IMG/VR virus record: IMGVR_UViG_2879770953_000006
DNA length: 18,423 nt
DNA from: a virus
Lineage: Duplodnaviria; Heunggongvirae; Uroviricota; Caudoviricetes
Reading direction: 5' to 3' (one strand)
The notes beneath the pieces are model-generated. The model made no database searches. It was not told the DNA's origin and was given only the letters and a program-made list of their open reading frames with translations. Shown piece after piece: positions 3,189-18,423 of the stretch. The translations under genes were made by a program, and so were the position numbers. Each line of letters opens with the position of its first letter. Positions within the stretch are counted from its first letter, which is position 1.

Positions 3189-3344
3189 TTACTCCTCAGG
3201 TTCGTAAGCTGTGAAGACAGCGACCTCCGTCTGGCCGGTTCGGATTCGTACCTCGCAGAGGTCTTTCCTCGTTACCAGTGCCGTCACTATGACGGTTAAA
3301 CAGATGACGATCAGGGCGATTAACATCGCCTTTTGCTGCTTCAT
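3189..3344 (-). CDS. hok: Hok-family type I toxin (51 aa), copy 1
   Basis: Translation MKQQKAMLIALIVICLTVIVTALVTRKDLCEVRIRTGQTEVAVFTAYEPEE matches HokD/RelF. ATG at 3342-3344 with SD AAGGAG. CDS is 100% identical in nucleotides to the copy at 16525-16680. Confidence 0.9.
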   Translation of the reverse strand: MKQQKAMLIALIVICLTVIVTALVTRKDLCEVRIRTGQTEVAVFTAYEPEE

Positions 3345-3401
3345 AGCCTGCTTCTCCTTGCCTTTCGGCACGTAAGAGGCTAACCTACATTTGTGAGACA
3401 T
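3189..3401 (-). CDS. mok: Mok-like in-frame upstream extension of hok (70 aa ORF)
   Basis: An ATG at 3399-3401 opens the same frame 19 codons upstream of hok (MSHKCRLASYVPKGKEKQA-MKQQ...), as in chromosomal mok/hok pairs. Absent from the second hok copy. Confidence 0.45.
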   Translation of the reverse strand: MSHKCRLASYVPKGKEKQAMKQQKAMLIALIVICLTVIVTALVTRKDLCEVRIRTGQTEVAVFTAYEPEE

Positions 3402-3682
3402 AGATTGGGCCTCAGATTAATGTTAAGCGTCTTGCAGGACGCGTAATGTTAACTGGGGCTTTTCTCTGTCTGCCTTACAGTGGCATGCCCGAGGCAGACA
3501 GCCTCAAGCACCCGCAGCAATCTTACCGATACCGATAAGAAAACGCTATTTTTTATTGCCAGCACCTTCTATCCAGGCTAATTTATCTGCGTCAGAACGG
3601 CGCAATGCGCTCGCCTGAGATACGTTTACTTGCCATGGTAACAACAGGTAACGGCAATTGCTGTTTCTGTTTTGTTTCCTTC

Positions 3683-6354: not shown

Positions 6355-7101
6355 CTACTTAACAACCCTCGAATGGCTAACATTCGGACGCCAGCTCTCC
6401 CAGTTAAAATTCACCCAGCGCCCGCCGTTCATGACCATGCGATCCATCACCCGCTCGCCGAGAAGTGTATTCATCGCTGCATGGTTAATATTTGTCAGCA
6501 TCCCCACACCGCGTAACGATGCCGTCCGGCGATCAACAATCTGGTTCAGTACCACCTGCTCGTTTTTCGTATCCCGCTGCATGCCAATTTCATCCAGGAC
6601 CAGCAGGTCAACACCACAAAGCTCCTGTAAAAATTTTTCACCGGATTTGCCGTTGTCGTAGCTCTCATGCAACACGCTCATGACATCGGACACGGTGACG
6701 ATAATCACGCTACGCCCCTTCGCCATCAGCCGGTTGCCAATCGCGGCTGCAAGATGATTTTTTCCGGTGCCGGGCTTACCGCTGAACACAAAATTCGTAC
6801 AGCCTGTCATCAGTTCGTCAGCTATGGATTTCGCCTGACTCAGTGCATGTCGCTGACCGTCGTTCTGCGCCCGGTAATTCGCAAACGAACACTTCCGGTG
6901 CAACGGCTGGATGCCGGAGCGGTTCAGGATTTTTTCCACCCGCAACTGACGATTCAGGCGGTTGATCTCCTCGCAACGTTTCTGGCCTTCAGCAAGTTGC
7001 CACTCGCGCCACTCCGCAACCGTTCTGAATGGGGCGGTTACATGTGGTGGGGTCAGTCTGCGGATACGCTCCAGAACGCCTCCTGTCGCAATATTTTTCA
7101 T
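6355..7101 (-). CDS. DnaC-like replication protein / helicase loader (IstB-like AAA+ ATPase, YdaV-like), 248 aa
   Basis: Walker A FSGKPGTGKNHLAAAIG and Walker B LLVLDEIG; immediately downstream of the initiator-like gene. Confidence 0.85.
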   Translation of the reverse strand: MKNIATGGVLERIRRLTPPHVTAPFRTVAEWREWQLAEGQKRCEEINRLNRQLRVEKILNRSGIQPLHRKCSFANYRAQNDGQRHALSQAKSIADELMTGCTNFVFSGKPGTGKNHLAAAIGNRLMAKGRSVIIVTVSDVMSVLHESYDNGKSGEKFLQELCGVDLLVLDEIGMQRDTKNEQVVLNQIVDRRTASLRGVGMLTNINHAAMNTLLGERVMDRMVMNGGRWVNFNWESWRPNVSHSRVVK

Positions 7102-7107
7102 GGTCTG

Positions 7108-7848
7108 TTACCCCCTGAAGCCTGGCGGGATCGCACTGTCCGGCAACGAGACGGTGTTAACCTGTCGGAGCAACGTCTCAGGCCGAACACCTTTCGGCGC
7201 GAACAGACCCTGGTATTCATTGGCGATGCTGTGTCGAATCACCTGCTCAGGTGTAAAACCCTGCTGACGGAATTTTTCCAGTTCCCGTATCGCCCCGTTA
7301 GCGCCCAGCTCCGTTCGAATCGGTTTTCGCAATGCCTGCCTGAACTGGACCCACTCATGCCAGAGTGTATCTGGCAACCAGTCGGGCAGATCAACTGACA
7401 ACGGGTCAAATTTTTTCTGGCGAACAGCCCCACCGATAACCAGAATTCCCTGCTCGGTGTGCCTTGCGATATCACTGCGCCGCAAGACACATATCCCGGT
7501 TTCAACAGCACCGATTTTGAGCAGTGATTTCTGTCGCGGAGAATTTCGGTCAAGCTCGATCCCACACCGGACACCGTTCCTGTCAGTCACGACGATATCA
7601 ATCCGCCCTCCGCAACCGTCACCACGCTCTGGCACCGGATACTCACGACAGACATCCAGGCCAGCAGCCTGCAACGCAACCACCGCAGAATTACAAAATT
7701 CCGCTGCAGTACCGCCAGATAATCTCCCCTCAAGCACTCCAGCCACAAAATCCCGAAACTCCCTTCCGGAAGGGAAGGGTTTGGGATGGGTTAGATCTGT
7801 TTTTAGATCTTTATCTGTATCTTTATTAGTTGCCTTTGTGTTGGCATC
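7108..7848 (-). pseudogene. Replication initiator (lambda O-like / YdaU-like), C-terminal portion, separated from its 5' part by IS2
   Basis: Open frame from the IS2 junction to the stop at 7108. It is in frame with the N-terminal piece at 9185-9592 once IS2 and one TSD copy are removed, giving a 382-codon gene. Confidence 0.7.
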
Positions 7849-7939
7849 TAGACTGGCCCCCTGAATCTCCAGACAACCAGTATCACTTATTTAAGTGATA
7901 GTCTTAATACTAGTTTTTAGACTAGTCATTGGAGAACAG

Positions 7940-8305
7940 ATGATTGATGTCTTAGGGCCGGAGAAACGCAGACGGCGTACCACACAGGAAAAGATCGCAA
8001 TTGTTCAGCAGAGCTTTGAACCGGGGATGACGGTCTCCCTCGTTGCCCGGCAACATGGTGTAGCAGCCAGCCAGTTATTTCTCTGGCGTAAGCAATACCA
8101 GGAAGGAAGTCTTACTGCTGTGGCCGCCGGAGAACAGGTTGTTCCTGCCTCTGAACTTGCTGCCGCCATGAAGCAGATTAAAGAACTCCAGCGCCTGCTC
8201 GGCAAGAAAACGATGGAAAATGAACTCCTCAAAGAAGCCGTTGAATATGGACGGGCAAAAAAGTGGATAGCGCACGCGCCCTTATTGCCCGGGGATGGGG
8301 AGTAA
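7940..8305 (+). CDS. insC: IS2 InsC (OrfA), 121 aa
   Basis: Translation [56 protein letters not shown]... matches IS2 InsC; ATG at 7940 with SD GGAGAA. Confidence 0.95.
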
Positions 8306-9168
8306 GCTTAGTCAGCCGTTGTCTCCGGGTGTCGCGTGCGCAGTTGCACGTCATTCTCAGACGAACCGATGACTGGATGGATGGCCGCCGCAGTCGTCAC
8401 ACTGATGATACGGATGTGCTTCTCCGTATACACCATGTTATCGGAGAGCTGCCCACGTATGGTTATCGTCGGGTATGGGCGCTGCTTCGCAGACAGGCAG
8501 AACTTGATGGTATGCCTGCGATCAATGCCAAACGTGTTTACCGGATCATGCGCCAGAATGCGCTGTTGCTTGAGCGAAAACCTGCTGTACCGCCATCGAA
8601 ACGGGCACATACAGGCAGAGTGGCCGTGAAAGAAAGCAATCAGCGATGGTGCTCTGACGGGTTCGAGTTCTGCTGTGATAACGGAGAGAGACTGCGTGTC
8701 ACGTTCGCGCTGGACTGCTGTGATCGTGAGGCACTGCACTGGGCGGTGACTACCGGCGGCTTCAACAGTGAAACAGTACAGGACGTCATGCTGGGAGCGG
8801 TGGAACGCCGCTTCGGCAACGATCTTCCGTCGTCTCCAGTGGAGTGGCTGACGGATAATGGTTCATGCTACCGGGCTAATGAAACACGCCAGTTCGCCCG
8901 GATGTTGGGACTTGAACCGAAGAACACGGCGGTGCGGAGTCCGGAGAGTAACGGAATAGCAGAGAGCTTCGTGAAAACGATAAAGCGTGACTACATCAGT
9001 ATCATGCCCAAACCAGACGGGTTAACGGCAGCAAAGAACCTTGCAGAGGCGTTCGAGCATTATAACGAATGGCATCCGCATAGTGCGCTGGGTTATCGCT
9101 CGCCACGGGAATATCTGCGGCAGCGGGCTTGTAATGGGTTAAGTGATAACAGATGTCTGGAAATATAG
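8263..9168 (+). CDS. insD: IS2 InsD (OrfB transposase), 301 aa
   Basis: Translation ...[50 protein letters not shown]... shows the DDE-type IS3-family transposase signature. Confidence 0.95.
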
Positions 9169-9184
9169 GGGCAAATCCAGCATC

Positions 9185-9592
9185 ATGTTCGAACACCACT
9201 CCAACATCTGTTTGAACACCTGTTAAATTTCTCTCTTGTTTTGTTTGAACATCTGCTTCCTTTCTGCTTCTTCTGGCCTGAACAGATGCTTTTCCTGCGG
9301 CTGATTTTTTGGTTAATTTTTCTCTGACAGATGCCAGATCTTCCTCAATCCGAAGATGCATCCATTCGTCGCCGTTATCACAAAAAAACTCCCGCAAGGA
9401 TGGTTCAACATCAACCCATCGCTCGTTAGTCAGACGGGCAATTTTTGCCAACCTGTTTTTGGGTATTGGCTTTCCTGTTTGCCAGTAATTGAACATCAGC
9501 AACAAATACGCGCCGTGCTCCTCTGCTGACAAATGCATGGTGTCAGCCAGATAATCAGCTATGTACAGTTGCATGTATGGTAATGCGGCCAT
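9185..9592 (-). pseudogene. Replication initiator (lambda O-like / YdaU-like, DUF1376-type), N-terminal 136 codons, truncated by IS2
   Basis: Translation MAALPYMQLYIADYLADTMHLSAEEHGAYLLLMFNYWQTGKPIPKNRLAKIARL... resembles YdaU-type proteins by recollection. The listed 196-aa ORF 9002..9592 is chimeric, with its tail encoded by the IS2 end. Confidence 0.7.
9186..9290. repeat. Putative origin iterons inside the initiator gene
   Basis: Direct repeats of TTTGAACA(C/T)CTG-like motifs at about 9187, 9211, 9244 and 9279 (33-bp spacing between the two best copies). An AT-rich repetitive stretch lies at 7789-7830 on the other side of IS2. Confidence 0.4.
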
Positions 9593-9695
9593 AATTGCCC
9601 CGTATGATGCTACCCGGTTGCTTAGAATAAGTGAGGTAGCCTGAGTTTAACGGACGCTCCTTCCTGAAATAGAATGGCATCAGAAGGAGCTAATA

Positions 9696-9998
9696 ATGAG
9701 CAGAAAAACCCAACGTTACTCTAAAGAGTTCAAAGCCGAAGCTGTCAGAACGGTTCTTGAAAATCAACTTTCGATCAGTGAAGGCGCTTCCCGATTATCT
9801 CTTCCTGAAGGCACTTTAGGACAATGGGTTACCGCCGCCAGAAAAGGGCTCGGTACTCCTGGTTCCCGCACGGTGGCTGAACTGGAATCTGAAATTCTGC
9901 AACTGCGTAAGGCGTTAAATGAAGCTCGCCTTGAGCGAGATATATTAAAAAAAGCAACAGCGTATTTTGCACAGGAGTCGCTGAAAAATACGCGTTAA
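9696..9998 (+). CDS. IS600-like OrfA (100 aa)
   Basis: Translation MSRKTQRYSKEFKAEAVRTVLENQLSISEGASRLSLPEGTLGQWV...; HTH plus leucine-zipper arrangement typical of IS3-family OrfA. Confidence 0.9.
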   Translation: MSRKTQRYSKEFKAEAVRTVLENQLSISEGASRLSLPEGTLGQWVTAARKGLGTPGSRTVAELESEILQLRKALNEARLERDILKKATAYFAQESLKNTR

Positions 9999-10033
9999 TC
10001 GAACAATGGCGACAACAATTTCCCATTGAAGCG

Positions 10034-10852
10034 ATGTGTCAGGTATTTGGTGTATCCAGGAGCGGTTATTACAACTGGGTACAGCATGAACCCTCAGACA
10101 GAAAACAAAGTGATGAGCGGCTAAAACTGGAGATTAAGGTGGCACATATCCGCACTCGCGAAACATATGGAACCCGGCGGCTCCAGACGGAGCTGGCAGA
10201 GAATGGCATCATCGTTGGTCGTGACCGACTGGCACGTCTTCGTAAGGAGCTGAGGCTACGCTGTAAGCAGAAACGCAAGTTCAGAGCGACTACGAACCCG
10301 AACCACAATCTGCCAGTTGCGCCAAATCTGCTGAACCAGACGTTCGCTCCTACAGCACCAAATCAGGTCTGGGTGGCGGACCTGACGTATGTTGCCACAC
10401 AGGAGGGATGGTTGTACCTCGCTGGCATCAAAGATGTTTATACGTGCGAAATTGTCGGCTACGCCATGGGAGAGCGCATGACAAAAGAGCTGACAGGTAA
10501 AGCCCTGTTTATGGCGCTCAGGAGCCAGCGCCCACCTGCCGGGCTAATCCACCACTCTGATCGAGGTTCACAGTACTGCGCATACGATTACCGGGTCATA
10601 CAGGAGCAGTTTGGTCTGAAAACATCAATGTCGCGTAAAGGTAACTGTTACGACAACGCTCCGATGGAAAGCTTCTGGGGAACGCTGAAAAATGAGAGCC
10701 TGAGCCACTATCGTTTTAATAACCGGGATGAAGCCATCTCAGTAATACGGGAATACATTGAGATTTTCTACAATCGTCAGCGTCGTCACTCTCGTCTGGG
10801 GAATATCTCCCCGGCAGCCTTCAGGGAAAAATATCATCAGATGGCTGCTTAA
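10034..10852 (+). CDS. IS600-like OrfB transposase frame (272 aa; normally an OrfAB frameshift fusion)
   Basis: DDE transposase motifs (...WVADLTYV...HHSDRGSQY...NAPMESFWGTLK...). Confidence 0.9.
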   Translation: MCQVFGVSRSGYYNWVQHEPSDRKQSDERLKLEIKVAHIRTRETYGTRRLQTELAENGIIVGRDRLARLRKELRLRCKQKRKFRATTNPNHNLPVAPNLLNQTFAPTAPNQVWVADLTYVATQEGWLYLAGIKDVYTCEIVGYAMGERMTKELTGKALFMALRSQRPPAGLIHHSDRGSQYCAYDYRVIQEQFGLKTSMSRKGNCYDNAPMESFWGTLKNESLSHYRFNNRDEAISVIREYIEIFYNRQRRHSRLGNISPAAFREKYHQMAA

Positions 10853-10895
10853 AAAAAGAACAAATGGTAGTGTCCGCTATTGCCAGTACACCTCA

Positions 10896-12147: not shown

Positions 12148-12594
12148 GGAGTTTACTCACATCTGACAAAATCAATATAAACAGCCCCTCCGGAGAGGGG
12201 CTGGAGAGTGGCGCTATGTGCCATTGCATGGTGCCGGGTGCCTCCCGGTGAATTCAGTACCAGCACCTGAATCCGCGATTATCCCATATACCTACTCGCT
12301 GATTGCCCCTCCGCACAGGGGGATTCACCATGCCAGTTTCTTTTAACAAACTCCCCGCAAACCAGACAACAGTCAACCGCCTGAATTGTGAAGTATTTAA
12401 AAATTTCTCCCGCTAACTGATACCCGGCTAACAGTCTGGCGTTTTCTTTTTCAGCAACGGGAAAGCAACAACCACCACACCCGCCACCAGCACACCGTCA
12501 GCCGGCACTGACATTATCCGGCTGCTGCAATGCCATTCACAAAAACAGTAAGCAATCACTTTTTACCGTAACAGGTGATAATCCAGATATGTAT

Positions 12595-13058: not shown

Positions 13059-13135
13059 TGGCGCGCTGTACTGGATTCGAACCAGTGACCGATTGCTTAG
13101 AAGGCAATTGCTCTGTCCGGCTGAGCTAACAACGC
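13059..13135 (-). tRNA. tRNA-Arg (anticodon UCU), phage-encoded
   Basis: rc reads GCGTTGTTAGCTCAGCCGGACAGAGCAATTGCCTTCTAAGCAATCGGTCACTGGTTCGAATCCAGTACAGCGCGCCA. Cloverleaf is consistent: 7-bp acceptor stem with one G-U pair, T-loop GGTTCGAATCC, anticodon loop CTTCTAA, 3' CCA. Confidence 0.85.
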
Positions 13136-13236
13136 TGAATACCGATAATGGACCGCCATCGGGGACCCGCCCCCCGCACCAACAACCCTGTTATCGTGTC
13201 GTCTGCTCTTCCTGATAAGCTAATGGCGGTTTGTGA

Positions 13237-13312
13237 TGGTGGCCCTTGCTGGATTTGAACCAGCGACCTGGCGATTATGAGTCGCTCGCTCTCACCACTG
13301 AGCTAAAGGGCC
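13237..13312 (-). tRNA. tRNA-Ile2 (anticodon CAU, ileX-like; formally could be a Met tRNA)
   Basis: rc reads GGCCCTTTAGCTCAGTGGTGAGAGCGAGCGACTCATAATCGCCAGGTCGCTGGTTCAAATCCAGCAAGGGCCACCA, which closely resembles E. coli ileX. Confidence 0.8.
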
Positions 13313-17561: not shown

Positions 17562-18423
17562 TGAGGTGTACTGGCAATAGCGGACACTACCATTTGTTCT
17601 TTTTTTAAGCAGCCATCTGATGATATTTTTCCCTGAAGGCTGCCGGGGAGATATTCCCCAGACGAGAGTGACGACGCTGACGATTGTAGAAAATCTCAAT
17701 GTATTCCCGTATTACTGAGATGGCTTCATCCCGGTTATTAAAACGATAGTGGCTCAGGCTCTCATTTTTCAGCGTTCCCCAGAAGCTTTCCATCGGAGCG
17801 TTGTCGTAACAGTTACCTTTACGCGACATTGATGTTTTCAGACCAAACTGCTCCTGTATGACCCGGTAATCGTATGCGCAGTACTGTGAACCTCGATCAG
17901 AGTGGTGGATTAGCCCGGCAGGTGGGCGCTGGCTCCTGAGCGCCATAAACAGGGCTTTACCTGTCAGCTCTTTTGCCATACGCTCTCCCATGGCGTAGCC
18001 GACAATTTCGCACGTATAAACATCTTTGATGCCAGCGAGGTACAACCATCCCTCCTGTGTGGCAACATACGTCAGGTCCGCCACCCAGACCTGATTTGGT
18101 GCTGTAGGAGCGAACGTCTGGTTCAGCAGATTTGGCGCAACTGGCAGATTGTGGTTCGGGTTCGTAGTCGCTCTGAACTTGCGTTTCTGCTTACAGCGTA
18201 GCCTCTGCTCCTTACGAAGACGTGCCAGTCGGTCACGACCAACGATGATGCCATTCTCTGCCAGCTCCGTCTGGAGCCGCCGGGTTCCATATGTTTCGCG
18301 AGTGCGGATATGTGCCACCTTAATCTCCAGTTTTAGCCGCTCATCACTTTGTTTTCTGTCTGAGGGTTCATGCTGTACCCAGTTGTAATAACCGCTCCTG
18401 GATACACCAAATACCTGACACAT
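17562..18423 (-). mobile_element. IS600-like element, second copy, inverted; partial (runs off the window)
   Basis: rc of 17562-17604 matches the right end of copy 1 (…GTACACCTCA). OrfB is complete; OrfA and the left end lie beyond the window. Confidence 0.85.
17605..18423 (-). CDS. IS600-like OrfB transposase (272 aa)
   Basis: Differs from copy-1 OrfB at 2 residues (L/Q in RLRKE(L/Q)RLR and T/A in GERM(T/A)KE). Confidence 0.9.
   Translation of the reverse strand: MCQVFGVSRSGYYNWVQHEPSDRKQSDERLKLEIKVAHIRTRETYGTRRLQTELAENGIIVGRDRLARLRKEQRLRCKQKRKFRATTNPNHNLPVAPNLLNQTFAPTAPNQVWVADLTYVATQEGWLYLAGIKDVYTCEIVGYAMGERMAKELTGKALFMALRSQRPPAGLIHHSDRGSQYCAYDYRVIQEQFGLKTSMSRKGNCYDNAPMESFWGTLKNESLSHYRFNNRDEAISVIREYIEIFYNRQRRHSRLGNISPAAFREKYHQMAA

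Follow-up and report, generated by a model that had tools for sequence, protein, structure and literature searches.

The locus at positions 7,108 to 9,592 of this Caudoviricetes record, set in a window (the whole stretch of DNA analysed) of 18,423 nucleotides, raises the question of whether an IS2 element has broken just a gene or has also parted the components of a replication origin lying within that gene. Our analysis makes it quite probable that this is an IS2-cut YdaU-family replication module of a Rac-like prophage, with the origin inside the linker of the initiator gene and its repeats and A-rich unwinding region split by the insertion.

The insertion itself is confirmed as a clean, 5-bp-duplicating entry of IS2 into a prophage replication-initiator gene. 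The element spans 7849-9179 on the plus strand (1331 bp) and its two overlapping transposase ORFs (7895-8305 and 8263-9168) lie on that strand, opposite to the initiator gene; its ends form imperfect terminal inverted repeats (TAGACTGGCCCC... and ...GGGGCAAATCCA) and it is 99.9% identical over its full length to copies annotated as "IS3-like element IS2 family transposase". It thus shows the length of about 1331 bp, the imperfect inverted repeats, the overlapping pair of ORFs and the 5-bp target duplication by which IS2 is recognized. The duplication, GCATC, lies at 7844-7848 on the left (gene nucleotides 409-413) and at 9180-9184 on the right. An earlier, sequence-only reading had proposed that removal of IS2 and one GCATC restores a single 382-codon frame, and so it does: the minus-strand join of 9592..9185 with 7848..7108 is 1149 nt long, i.e., 382 codons plus a stop. 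The uninterrupted alleles that it suggested seeking in relatives are present in E. coli FDAARGOS_944 and VL40, at 99.6-99.7% identity, and there GCATC stands just once. As the gene now stands, its 5' part runs on into IS2 to give a 196-aa product (ORF 9002-9592), and IS2 would truncate the initiator protein after residue 136. The same reading called the insertion "recent, clean"; the duplication and the preserved frame bear out the second adjective. The exact junction recurs in S. flexneri SFBU1023 and in ECMA0423, the exact 196-aa YdaU::IS2 fusion product in 25 contigs and a close variant of it in 68, all named S. flexneri; since the insertion is shared by so many S. flexneri assemblies, "recent" is unsupported.

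The interrupted gene can be assigned to a family with some precision. Its 5' part (9185..9592, minus strand; codons 1-136) encodes a DUF1376 winged-helix domain of the YdaU family and the linker that contains the iteron-like repeats, and its 3' part (7108..7848, minus strand) codons 137-382 and the stop. DUF1376 (Pfam PF07120) is found in residues 5-87 with 87.8 bits against a cut-off of 30.1 (E 6.6e-25), which upholds the YdaU/DUF1376-like N-terminal domain recognized earlier. The AlphaFold2 model of residues 1-110 (9263..9592, minus strand; pLDDT 92.4) shows a winged helix with a long helix after it, and its nearest folds are replication-initiator winged helices; a profile search of this domain against PDB sequences returned no match, leaving the fold search alone informative. 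A search of the restored gene against initiators, the check proposed at the outset, recovered DUF1376, PHROG families named "primosomal protein" and, for the C-terminal part, "O-like", as well as the C-domain of the Gifsy-2 O protein. One fragment of the VL40 allele carries the NCBI pipeline label "phage replication initiator YdaU family protein"; here there is also an annotation problem, in that this pipeline calls intact three-domain alleles two pseudogene fragments. In K-12, ydaU probably starts 17 codons downstream of its annotated start codon.

The neighborhood is that of a replication module. Six nucleotides after the initiator stop begins a ydaV-type gene for a DnaC-like helicase loader (6355..7101, minus strand), which scores 506.9 bits against the NF009043 cut-off of 389. 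The order of cI/cro/cII-type genes, DUF1376 gene and DnaC-like loader recurs in E. coli, Salmonella and three Pseudomonas phages, and a DUF1376 gene directly upstream of a loader or helicase gene in phages of E. coli, Salmonella, Pseudomonas, Ralstonia and Acinetobacter. The initiator gene thereby occupies the place of O in lambda, between a cII-type gene and the helicase-loader gene. The earlier label "lambda-O-like" is apt for this position, for the architecture and for a C-domain held in common with Gifsy-type O (E 5e-28), but not for similarity to lambda O itself: BLASTP against lambda O gives an E-value of 1.7, and Phage_rep_O (PF04492), which lambda O and Gifsy-2 O each match, is absent from the initiator, in which Pfam detects DUF1376 alone. 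Unlike lambda O, with its Phage_rep_O N-domain, the protein has DUF1376 at its N-terminus, a DnaC-like AAA+ loader rather than lambda P as its partner, an extra nuclease-like domain, and a C-domain not homologous to that of lambda O.

The initiator would thus comprise three domains: the DUF1376 winged helix, a restriction-endonuclease-like middle and a DnaT-like C-domain. The linker followed by one C-terminal domain described earlier is correct as to the linker; beyond it lies not a single domain but a restriction-endonuclease-like module and then a DnaT-like three-helix bundle. The middle domain (residues ~155-285; 7402..7794, minus strand) has an alpha-beta-beta-beta-alpha-beta core whose modeled topology fits a PD-(D/E)xK-like fold, with pLDDT of only 56-78; in Foldseek, proteins of nuclease fold make up most of its best matches, at non-significant E-values of at least 0.06, and a match to Pfam MTES_1575, at 13.5 bits, falls below the cut-off. 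It also matches phrog_1347 and contains a conserved motif, RGDG..G.ID...IELD..PR.KS, with the E, D, E-x-D and K columns near-invariant among 68 homologues. A homology search with this domain alone gave five matches and hence a shallow alignment for a second structure model, and the initiator fragment had no match in the PADLOC defence-system library. The family has 296 cluster representatives, either free-standing (~100-140 aa) or embedded at residues ~150-300 of proteins of 300-500 aa, where it follows at least nine families of winged-helix/HTH N-domains (e.g., DUF1376, Phage_rep_O, HTH_36, DUF6291 and DnaD_N). Some relatives have an HNH or a T5orf172 (GIY-YIG-like) domain at the corresponding place, and in one locus (L102) the ORF for a DUF1376-HNH fusion precedes a second initiator-like ORF of a different kind. 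Lambdoid phages are well known to swap the N-domain and its iterons as one module. We raise, as a speculative and rather doubtful possibility, that the unannotated middle domain is one of several recurrent nuclease cassettes lodged in frame in phage initiators just downstream of the origin-encoding linker, where they would either drive such swaps, as homing endonucleases at the level of domains, or nick the origin.

The C-terminal domain (residues 290-382; 7111..7389, minus strand; phrog_678) is a three-helix bundle with helices modeled at residues 160-172, 180-195 and 200-216 of the fragment (pLDDT 84-94), ending in the tail VNTVSLPDSAIPPGFRG. It aligns with residues 92-179 of E. coli DnaT (E 1.6e-4 to 2ru8_A and 6.4e-4 to 9zbt_D), with a near-identical C-terminal tail (VNTVS.PDS.IPPGFRG), and, as in the dnaT-dnaC operon, a DnaC-family loader gene follows; in contrast, the N-terminal two thirds of the initiator are unrelated to DnaT. 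Over the C-terminal 100 residues it is 50% identical to Gifsy-2 O, and the Gifsy-1 and Gifsy-2 (phi80 gp15-type) O proteins likewise have a DnaC-like loader as partner, but their N-domain is Phage_rep_O. The C-domain of DnaT forms ssDNA filaments at the helicase-loading site, and DnaT is brought by PriA/PriB to abandoned forks rather than to a sequence-defined origin (PMC13377028).

The DNA that encodes the linker carries, on the N-terminal side of IS2, an array of iteron-like repeats. The sequence TGTTYRAACA occurs three times in the 18.4-kb window, all inside 66 bp (9186-9251), against an expectation of 0.09, and none of 200 shuffles reached three. In gene order the array consists of a degenerate copy (sense TGTTCAGGCC; 9275..9284, gene nt 309-318), two near-palindromes (sense TGTTCAAACA) at 9242..9251 (nt 342-351) and 9209..9218 (nt 375-384), a second degenerate copy (sense TGTTGGAGTG; 9197..9206, nt 387-396) and, last, the palindrome TGTTCGAACA at 9186..9195 (nt 398-407), 1 nt from the IS2 target duplication. 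The four or five repeats first counted are right if the two degenerate copies are taken with the three TGTTYRAACA; the five are spaced by 33/33/12/11 nt. Four of them share a single frame and fall on an xVQx repeat of the peptide, whereas the final palindrome, the strongest copy, lies in another. IS2 sits one base beyond this palindrome and before an A-rich stretch (7791..7836; gene nt 421-466), a candidate DNA-unwinding element with short ATAAAG/ACAGAT repeats, two GATC sites and a sense strand that counts 26 A to 8 T. At 74% AT it includes the 40-nt window of highest AT content in the restored gene, and only 1.8% of 46-nt windows across the whole window are as AT-rich. Repeats on one side of IS2 and an AT-rich stretch on the other, as reported from the letters, are hence both there, the two now lying 1.3 kb apart. 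A search for DnaA boxes found none, and matches to the oriC 13-mer were poor (2-3 mismatches).

The layout resembles that of lambda ori: both lie in linker DNA after an N-terminal DNA-binding domain (iterons at nt 349-433 in lambda, nt 309-407 here), with an AT-rich region directly downstream and dyad symmetry in each repeat, though the repeats are 10 bp here as against 18-19 bp. A local-repeat scan, which finds the known iterons of lambda (its peak falls at nt 346; they are annotated at nt 349-433), peaks at nt 301-391 in 9 of 11 DUF1376 genes, with the most AT-rich window following at nt 386-431 in six of the eleven. In five distant DUF1376 genes Tandem Repeats Finder detects repeats of period 11 at nt ~330-400, followed in two of these by period-7 A-rich repeats; a Pseudomonas phage and a Moraxella phage share one identical unit, AACGACCGTTC, though their proteins have diverged. 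As neither period is a multiple of 3, such arrays cannot be peptide repeats. Codon repetition alone, which the sequence-only reading had named as grounds for abandoning the origin, is therefore contradicted both by the out-of-frame last copy and by the period-11 and period-7 repeats of homologues. Further, an alternative allele (P0055) couples a different N-domain to different repeats (GTTAC/GTAAC, five copies) at the equivalent place, followed by the same middle and C-domains; thus, as in lambda O, N-domain and repeats are exchanged together as one module.

Tests within single genes were more equivocal. On synonymous recoding of the E. coli linker the observed repeat count, by a "9-mer family" statistic, was reached in 2 of 300 trials; the test was also significant for PfDIW6 (16/300) and the alternative allele (12/300), and not for three of the seven genes (Salmonella, PfAn1 and AH02), the statistic being too coarse for 6-7-bp cores. 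The repeats show no special conservation among 35 closely related IMG/VR alleles (0.29 variable sites per nt in the linker vs. 0.15 in the N-domain), a comparison that is uninformative or mildly negative, most alleles being those of cryptic prophages. A viral-contig scan for diverse relatives yielded only E. coli/Shigella loci 96-100% identical to this one, good for allele counts only.

Among the closest known counterparts is the Rac prophage of E. coli K-12, which carries an active origin, oriJ (PMC3945230); a passage of PMC11014345, citing Potrykus 2000, describes oriJ as a defined origin that supports plasmids. The N-domain, linker, repeats, A-rich stretch and C-domain of Rac ydaU are ~95-96% identical in DNA to those here and a ydaV-type loader gene comes next, but K-12 YdaU (285 aa as annotated) is without the ~115-aa middle domain, and only here is the gene cut by IS2 and its upstream region lost to IS600. 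In the 3.7 kb from racR to ydaW of K-12, the ydaU linker contains all eight of the windows densest in repeats. We found no base-level position for oriJ in the literature searched. The primers said to frame it in PMC3945230 amplify 155 bp within ydaV, not ydaU; this amplicon has background repeat density, with neither repeats nor AT-richness, and we set it aside as a map position and take it for a nearby marker. The linker DNA is likely to be the equivalent of oriJ.

Could the repeats and the A-rich stretch instead be by-products of a low-complexity lysine/aspartate/threonine-rich linker, with the true origin elsewhere (e.g., in ydaV or the upstream intergenic region) and IS2 having broken just a gene? 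Protein-level causes also make such linkers repeat-rich, and the frame shared by four of the five copies with the xVQx repeat, the unremarkable conservation in the 35 alleles, the three genes that failed the recoding test and the ydaV position of the published primers are all as this would have it. Yet the strongest copy is out of frame with the others, the period-11 and period-7 repeats of distant homologues are impossible as peptide repeats, and the Pseudomonas and Moraxella phages share their 11-mer despite diverged proteins; moreover, the repeat sequence switches with the type of N-domain, the scan that finds these arrays recovers the true lambda iterons, and the ydaV amplicon stands at background. 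We accordingly regard a by-product as unlikely.

Two other explanations accept the elements and deny them an origin role. YdaU might serve as a primosome adaptor of the DnaT kind, loading DnaB at D-loops or R-loops, rather than as a sequence-specific origin binder, leaving no defined origin for IS2 to split; the DnaT homology of the C-domain, the "primosomal protein" name of the PHROG families and the mirroring of dnaT-dnaC by ydaU-ydaV speak for it. The winged helix, however, resembles origin-binding initiator domains and not the DnaT N-domain, Gifsy-2 joins the same DnaT-like C-domain to a true Phage_rep_O origin-binding domain, the gene takes the O position in lambdoid genomes, and Rac has, by the passage of PMC11014345 noted above, a defined plasmid-supporting origin; we consider an adaptor of this kind very unlikely. 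Alternatively, the palindromes might be operator-like, serving autoregulation or a different regulator of the phage (e.g., of YdaS/YdaT type). Palindromic 10-mers are the usual site shape for dimeric regulators, and initiators often autoregulate through their own iterons; against this, the sites lie 300-400 nt into the coding sequence and distant from promoters, an A-rich region comes after them just as it does in lambda ori, and phages that lack ydaS/ydaT keep the arrangement, making a purely regulatory role highly improbable.

Returning to an origin within the linker, we advance the following probable mechanism. The origin would comprise some five copies of TGTTYRAACA in helical phase (gene nt 309-407) and, after them, the A-rich unwinding region (nt 421-466), placed, as lambda ori is inside O, in the DNA for the linker that follows the N-domain. 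Judging from the sequence comparisons, the N-domain would bind the repeats and the linker DNA would fire as the origin, while the C-domain would coat the unwound strand and/or recruit the DnaB-loader complex. IS2 entered GCATC one base beyond the last repeat, putting the repeats 1.3 kb from the putative unwinding region. As to the split internal iteron origin first claimed, an iteron-like array parted from an A-rich region in a lambda-ori layout is there, and its function as an origin is putative.

IS2 is not the only lesion. An IS600 (9632-10895, plus strand; 1264 bp, with no matching target duplication) lies 39 nt upstream of the initiator ATG, where intact relatives have ydaT/ydaS, the repressor gene and the promoter; the first reading overlooked it. 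The window holds IS1, IS2 and two copies of IS600. An IS600-mediated rearrangement, separate from the IS2 insertion, removed the promoter and immunity region, and the window is probably the remnant of a Rac-like lambdoid prophage in a Shigella flexneri-type genome. The claim that IS2 inactivates replication of this prophage thus stands as regards the split gene and falls as regards a sole cause: since ydaT, ydaS, the repressor gene and the promoter have given way to IS600, the replication module was or would be dead anyway. IS-broken prophage genes are abundant in Shigella genomes, and the IS2 insertion per se is ordinary prophage decay of little import.

What the locus offers lies in the module rather than in its breakage. 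It provides a base-level candidate origin for Rac-type (YdaU/YdaV) modules, whose type of origin is poorly mapped; such modules are present in 1506 of 5426 complete E. coli genomes, more than one in four. The DnaT-like C-domain on a putative origin-binding winged helix ties the phage initiator to the host DnaT-DnaC pair, an architecture consistent with the recent idea that the C-domain of DnaT marks the helicase-loading site on ssDNA. Finally, the rule known from lambda, that the origin lies in the linker of the initiator gene and its repeats co-vary with the N-domain, would thereby extend to the DUF1376 family across Proteobacteria.

An IS2 element (7849-9179, 1331 bp, starting TAGACTGGCCCCC and finishing GGGGCAAATCCA) splits the minus-strand YdaU-family initiator gene, as the sequence-only reading had held, and we regard this insertion as nearly certain. 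The element encodes two overlapping plus-strand ORFs (7895-8305 and 8263-9168), shows full-length 99.9% identity to elements that thousands of E. coli records label 'IS3-like element IS2 family transposase', and has a GCATC duplication on either side (7844-7848 and 9180-9184). Removing it with one GCATC fuses 9592..9185 to 7848..7108, yielding a 1149-nt frame of 382 codons plus a stop. A search for uninterrupted alleles recovered them, each with a single GCATC at the site, from E. coli FDAARGOS_944 (99.7% identity) and VL40 (99.6%); hence, the restored gene is the real pre-insertion state. IMG/VR holds nine further intact 382-codon alleles, and exact 382-aa proteins are recorded from E. coli and Salmonella. 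The insertion had also been taken to be recent, which the comparison does not support. Shigella flexneri SFBU1023 and 'E. coli' ECMA0423, whose genome measures 4.44 Mb, share the identical IS2/gene junction; their flanks show mismatches to those of the window at 12 of 4035 positions (SFBU1023) and 51 of 7872 (ECMA0423). The present-day product is a 196-aa fusion (136 YdaU residues and 60 read from IS2), found as an exact sequence on 25 contigs and as a close variant on 68, all named S. flexneri, alongside many 'partial' versions from drafts broken at the IS. The insertion is therefore fixed in a Shigella lineage and is not a recent event of a single strain.

The N-terminal domain of the restored protein matches DUF1376 at residues 5-87 (87.8 bits; cut-off 30.1). 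An AlphaFold2 model of residues 1-110, built from 65 diverse homologues (mean pLDDT 92.4), is a winged helix with helices at 23-39, 45-51 and 56-67, a beta wing at 71-78 and a long helix at 80-109. At the other end, residues 290-382, confidently modeled as a three-helix bundle, can be aligned to E. coli DnaT over its C-terminal domain (2ru8_A, E 1.6e-4; 9zbt_D, E 6.4e-4), with a nearly identical tail, VNTVS-PDS-IPPGFRG. This C-domain also shares 50% identity (E 5e-28) with the C-terminal end of the 'lambda gpO homolog' from Gifsy-2, a protein whose own N-domain is Phage_rep_O and whose partner is DnaC-like. The gene immediately downstream (6355-7101) is a ydaV-type DnaC paralogue (NF009043, 506.9 bits), and in E. 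coli, Salmonella, Pseudomonas, Ralstonia and Acinetobacter phages, DUF1376 genes are preceded by cI/cro/cII-type genes and followed by a helicase loader or helicase gene. Together, the domains, the loader neighbor and the genomic position identify an O-position replication initiator made of parts other than those of lambda O, an identity we hold with high confidence; NCBI's annotation pipeline already uses the label 'phage replication initiator YdaU family protein'. The description 'lambda-O-like' thus stands only for the position, the architecture and the Gifsy-2 O-like C-domain: the protein shows no similarity to lambda O (E 1.7), and the module falls outside the lambda O family because the Phage_rep_O domain is absent. 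As to gene starts, the annotated start of K-12 ydaU in the Rac locus (L004 3120-3977; MLFVLILS...) is 17 codons upstream of MAALPYMQ, whereas MAALPY is the exact start of the Salmonella and Pseudomonas-phage homologues; the K-12 gene has therefore probably been annotated to begin too far upstream. IS600 interrupts this putative 17-codon extension ahead of the initiator ATG (window 9593-9631).

The four or five direct repeats noticed beside IS2 were counted as three strong and two weak copies in the linker-coding DNA (gene nt 1 being the A of the ATG at 9592): weak at nt 309 (sense TGTTCAGGCC), strong at nt 342 and nt 375 (both TGTTCAAACA), weak at nt 387 (TGTTGGAGTG) and strong, as a perfect palindrome, at nt 398 (TGTTCGAACA). 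Their start-to-start distances (33, 33, 12 and 11 nt) are near whole helical turns. Across the 18.4-kb window, TGTTYRAACA has three matches, all within 66 bp, against 0.09 expected, a count reached in none of 200 shuffles. Also as anticipated, an A-rich stretch lies on the other side of IS2 (nt 421-466; 74% AT; 26 A and 8 T on the sense strand), with short ATAAAG/ACAGAT repeats, two GATC sites and the gene's most AT-rich 40-nt window. The layout is as in lambda, where four annotated iterons occupy O nt 349-433 and the window richest in AT begins at nt 436. The IS2 duplication corresponds to nt 409-413, one base past the last repeat. That last iteron is the center of a 32-bp imperfect palindrome (9181-9212 with IS2 removed; sense TGTTGGAGTGGTGTTCGAACATGATGCCAACA), whose 16-nt arms are 81% complementary in the intact allele and whose right arm contains the IS2 target, GATGC.

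Might these repeats be no more than a by-product of a repetitive linker peptide? In 35 close alleles the linker is indeed more polymorphic than the N-domain, the repeats show no protection, and the published 'oriJ' primers map to ydaV. Of 300 synonymous recodings of the linker, only 2 attained as many repeats as observed, although this test failed for three genes. Moreover, the strongest copy is read in another frame than the rest, and peptide repeats cannot be encoded by the periods of 11 and 7 seen in related genes. Five genes gave repeats of period 11 at nt ~330-400 in Tandem Repeats Finder, namely those of Pseudomonas phages PfDIW6 and PfAn1, Moraxella Mcat18, Ralstonia UAM5 and a Rhizobium phage. 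A-rich repeats of period 6 and period 7 (ATACAG, AACCAAG, AACCAAT) come next, at nt ~400-460. A blind local-repeat scan that finds the lambda iterons covered 11 DUF1376 genes from six bacterial orders, and in 9 of these its densest window fell at nt 301-391; a rough binomial (~7 of 50 possible positions) gives a chance of the order of 1e-6, which is overstated, linkers being repeat-prone. From K-12 racR to ydaW, all eight of the densest repeat windows fall in the ydaU linker. Finally, an alternative allele (P0055), which keeps the middle and C-domains while its N-domain is unrelated, has five GTTAC/GTAAC copies at the same place, the pattern of N-domain and repeat co-variation known from lambdoid O genes. 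We thus consider the peptide by-product improbable, and an in-gene origin, as predicted from these sequence patterns, likely. An 11-bp tandem unit, AACGACCGTTC, common to the linkers of UFJF_PfDIW6 (L007 2858-2878) and Mcat18 (L098 1879-1903), suggests a single DNA specificity for a DUF1376 subgroup across genera. In place of this unit, ATGCAAA repeats are seen in those alphaproteobacterial phages that were examined (Rhizobium, Acetobacter).

The single C-terminal domain of the sequence-only reading proved to be the DnaT-like domain preceded by a separate middle domain (residues ~155-285; 7402-7794, minus strand; also L001 6001-7200 and L101 988-2160 among the comparison loci). This putative restriction-endonuclease-like module, missing from K-12 Rac YdaU, matches phrog_1347 and is unannotated; NCBI's pipeline splits intact three-domain alleles into two pseudogene pieces. 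Its low-confidence model (alpha-alpha-beta-beta-beta-alpha-beta) has only weak fold matches, mostly to restriction-endonuclease-like proteins, and it bears the motif RGDG..G.ID...IELD..PR.KS. In 68 homologues the E, D, E-x-D and K columns are almost invariant. The family comprises 296 cluster representatives; some are free-standing (~100-140 aa), and others lie at residues ~150-300 of 300-500-aa proteins behind HTH_36, DUF1376, Phage_rep_O (as in Providencia phage PSTCR7lys), DUF6291, DnaD_N, MarR-like or other N-domains. In some other DUF1376 genes (P0138, P0147, P0178), an HNH or T5orf172 (GIY-YIG-like) nuclease domain is fused directly behind the winged helix, where the origin linker normally begins; in L102 (2001-2994) such a fusion ORF is followed, with an overlap, by a second ORF that has a TDTDTD linker and an initiator-like N-domain of another type. 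These domains may be nuclease cassettes that move between genes, or they may be functional components of the initiator.

Loss of replication had been ascribed to IS2, which did hit the gene but is not the only lesion. A complete IS600 (9632-10895), 39 nt upstream of the initiator ATG, stands in place of ydaT, ydaS, the repressor gene and the promoter, whereas intact relatives have ydaT, followed by a cro-like gene and a divergent repressor gene, at this position; thus, the promoter and immunity region were lost via an IS600 rearrangement independent of IS2. Beyond it, 6.7 kb of an unrelated lambdoid late-control region (Q antiterminator, RusA, DUF968, two tRNAs, STnc100) extends to a second, inverted IS600 (17562-18423, the window end). 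The complete copy has no matching 3-bp target duplication at its ends (AAG left, GTC right), and the arrangement as a whole suggests that IS600 mediated an inversion or a deletion. The complete IS600 has yet another far flank in SFBU1023. An IS1 (1931-2698, 768 bp; 9-bp target duplication TACTAACAG) lies within the nin-like region of the same remnant. Rfam and ARAGORN matches typical of lambdoid prophages comprise C4 antisense RNA/isrK/c4-a1b1 adjoining a DUF1133/Q-like gene (191-392), sok antitoxin RNA (3339-3513), STnc100 (12173-12362), and tRNA-Arg(tct) with tRNA-Met downstream of the second Q gene (13059-13312).

In sum, the original observation is confirmed and its interpretation is right in its core, with corrections on 'lambda-O-like', 'recent' and IS2 as the cause of inactivation. 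The gene is an IS-broken member of the YdaU/DUF1376 family, closely related to ydaU of Rac, which is known to hold an active origin, oriJ (PMC3945230; also PMC11014345); our literature search found no base-level map of oriJ. In order, the replication module carries the winged helix, repeats, A-rich stretch, middle and DnaT-like domains, and loader gene. We propose that it works like lambda O/ori: (i) winged-helix dimers would bind the phased palindromes; (ii) the adjacent A-rich DNA would open; (iii) the C-domain would coat or mark the single strand, as that of DnaT does at restart sites (PMC13377028); (iv) the YdaV loader would bring DnaB. The ydaU-ydaV pair would then parallel the dnaT-dnaC operon. 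By cutting the protein short after residue 136 and separating the repeats from the unwinding region by 1.3 kb, IS2 would have disabled both protein and site, an overall explanation (insertion, initiator, in-gene origin and disabling) that we consider likely.
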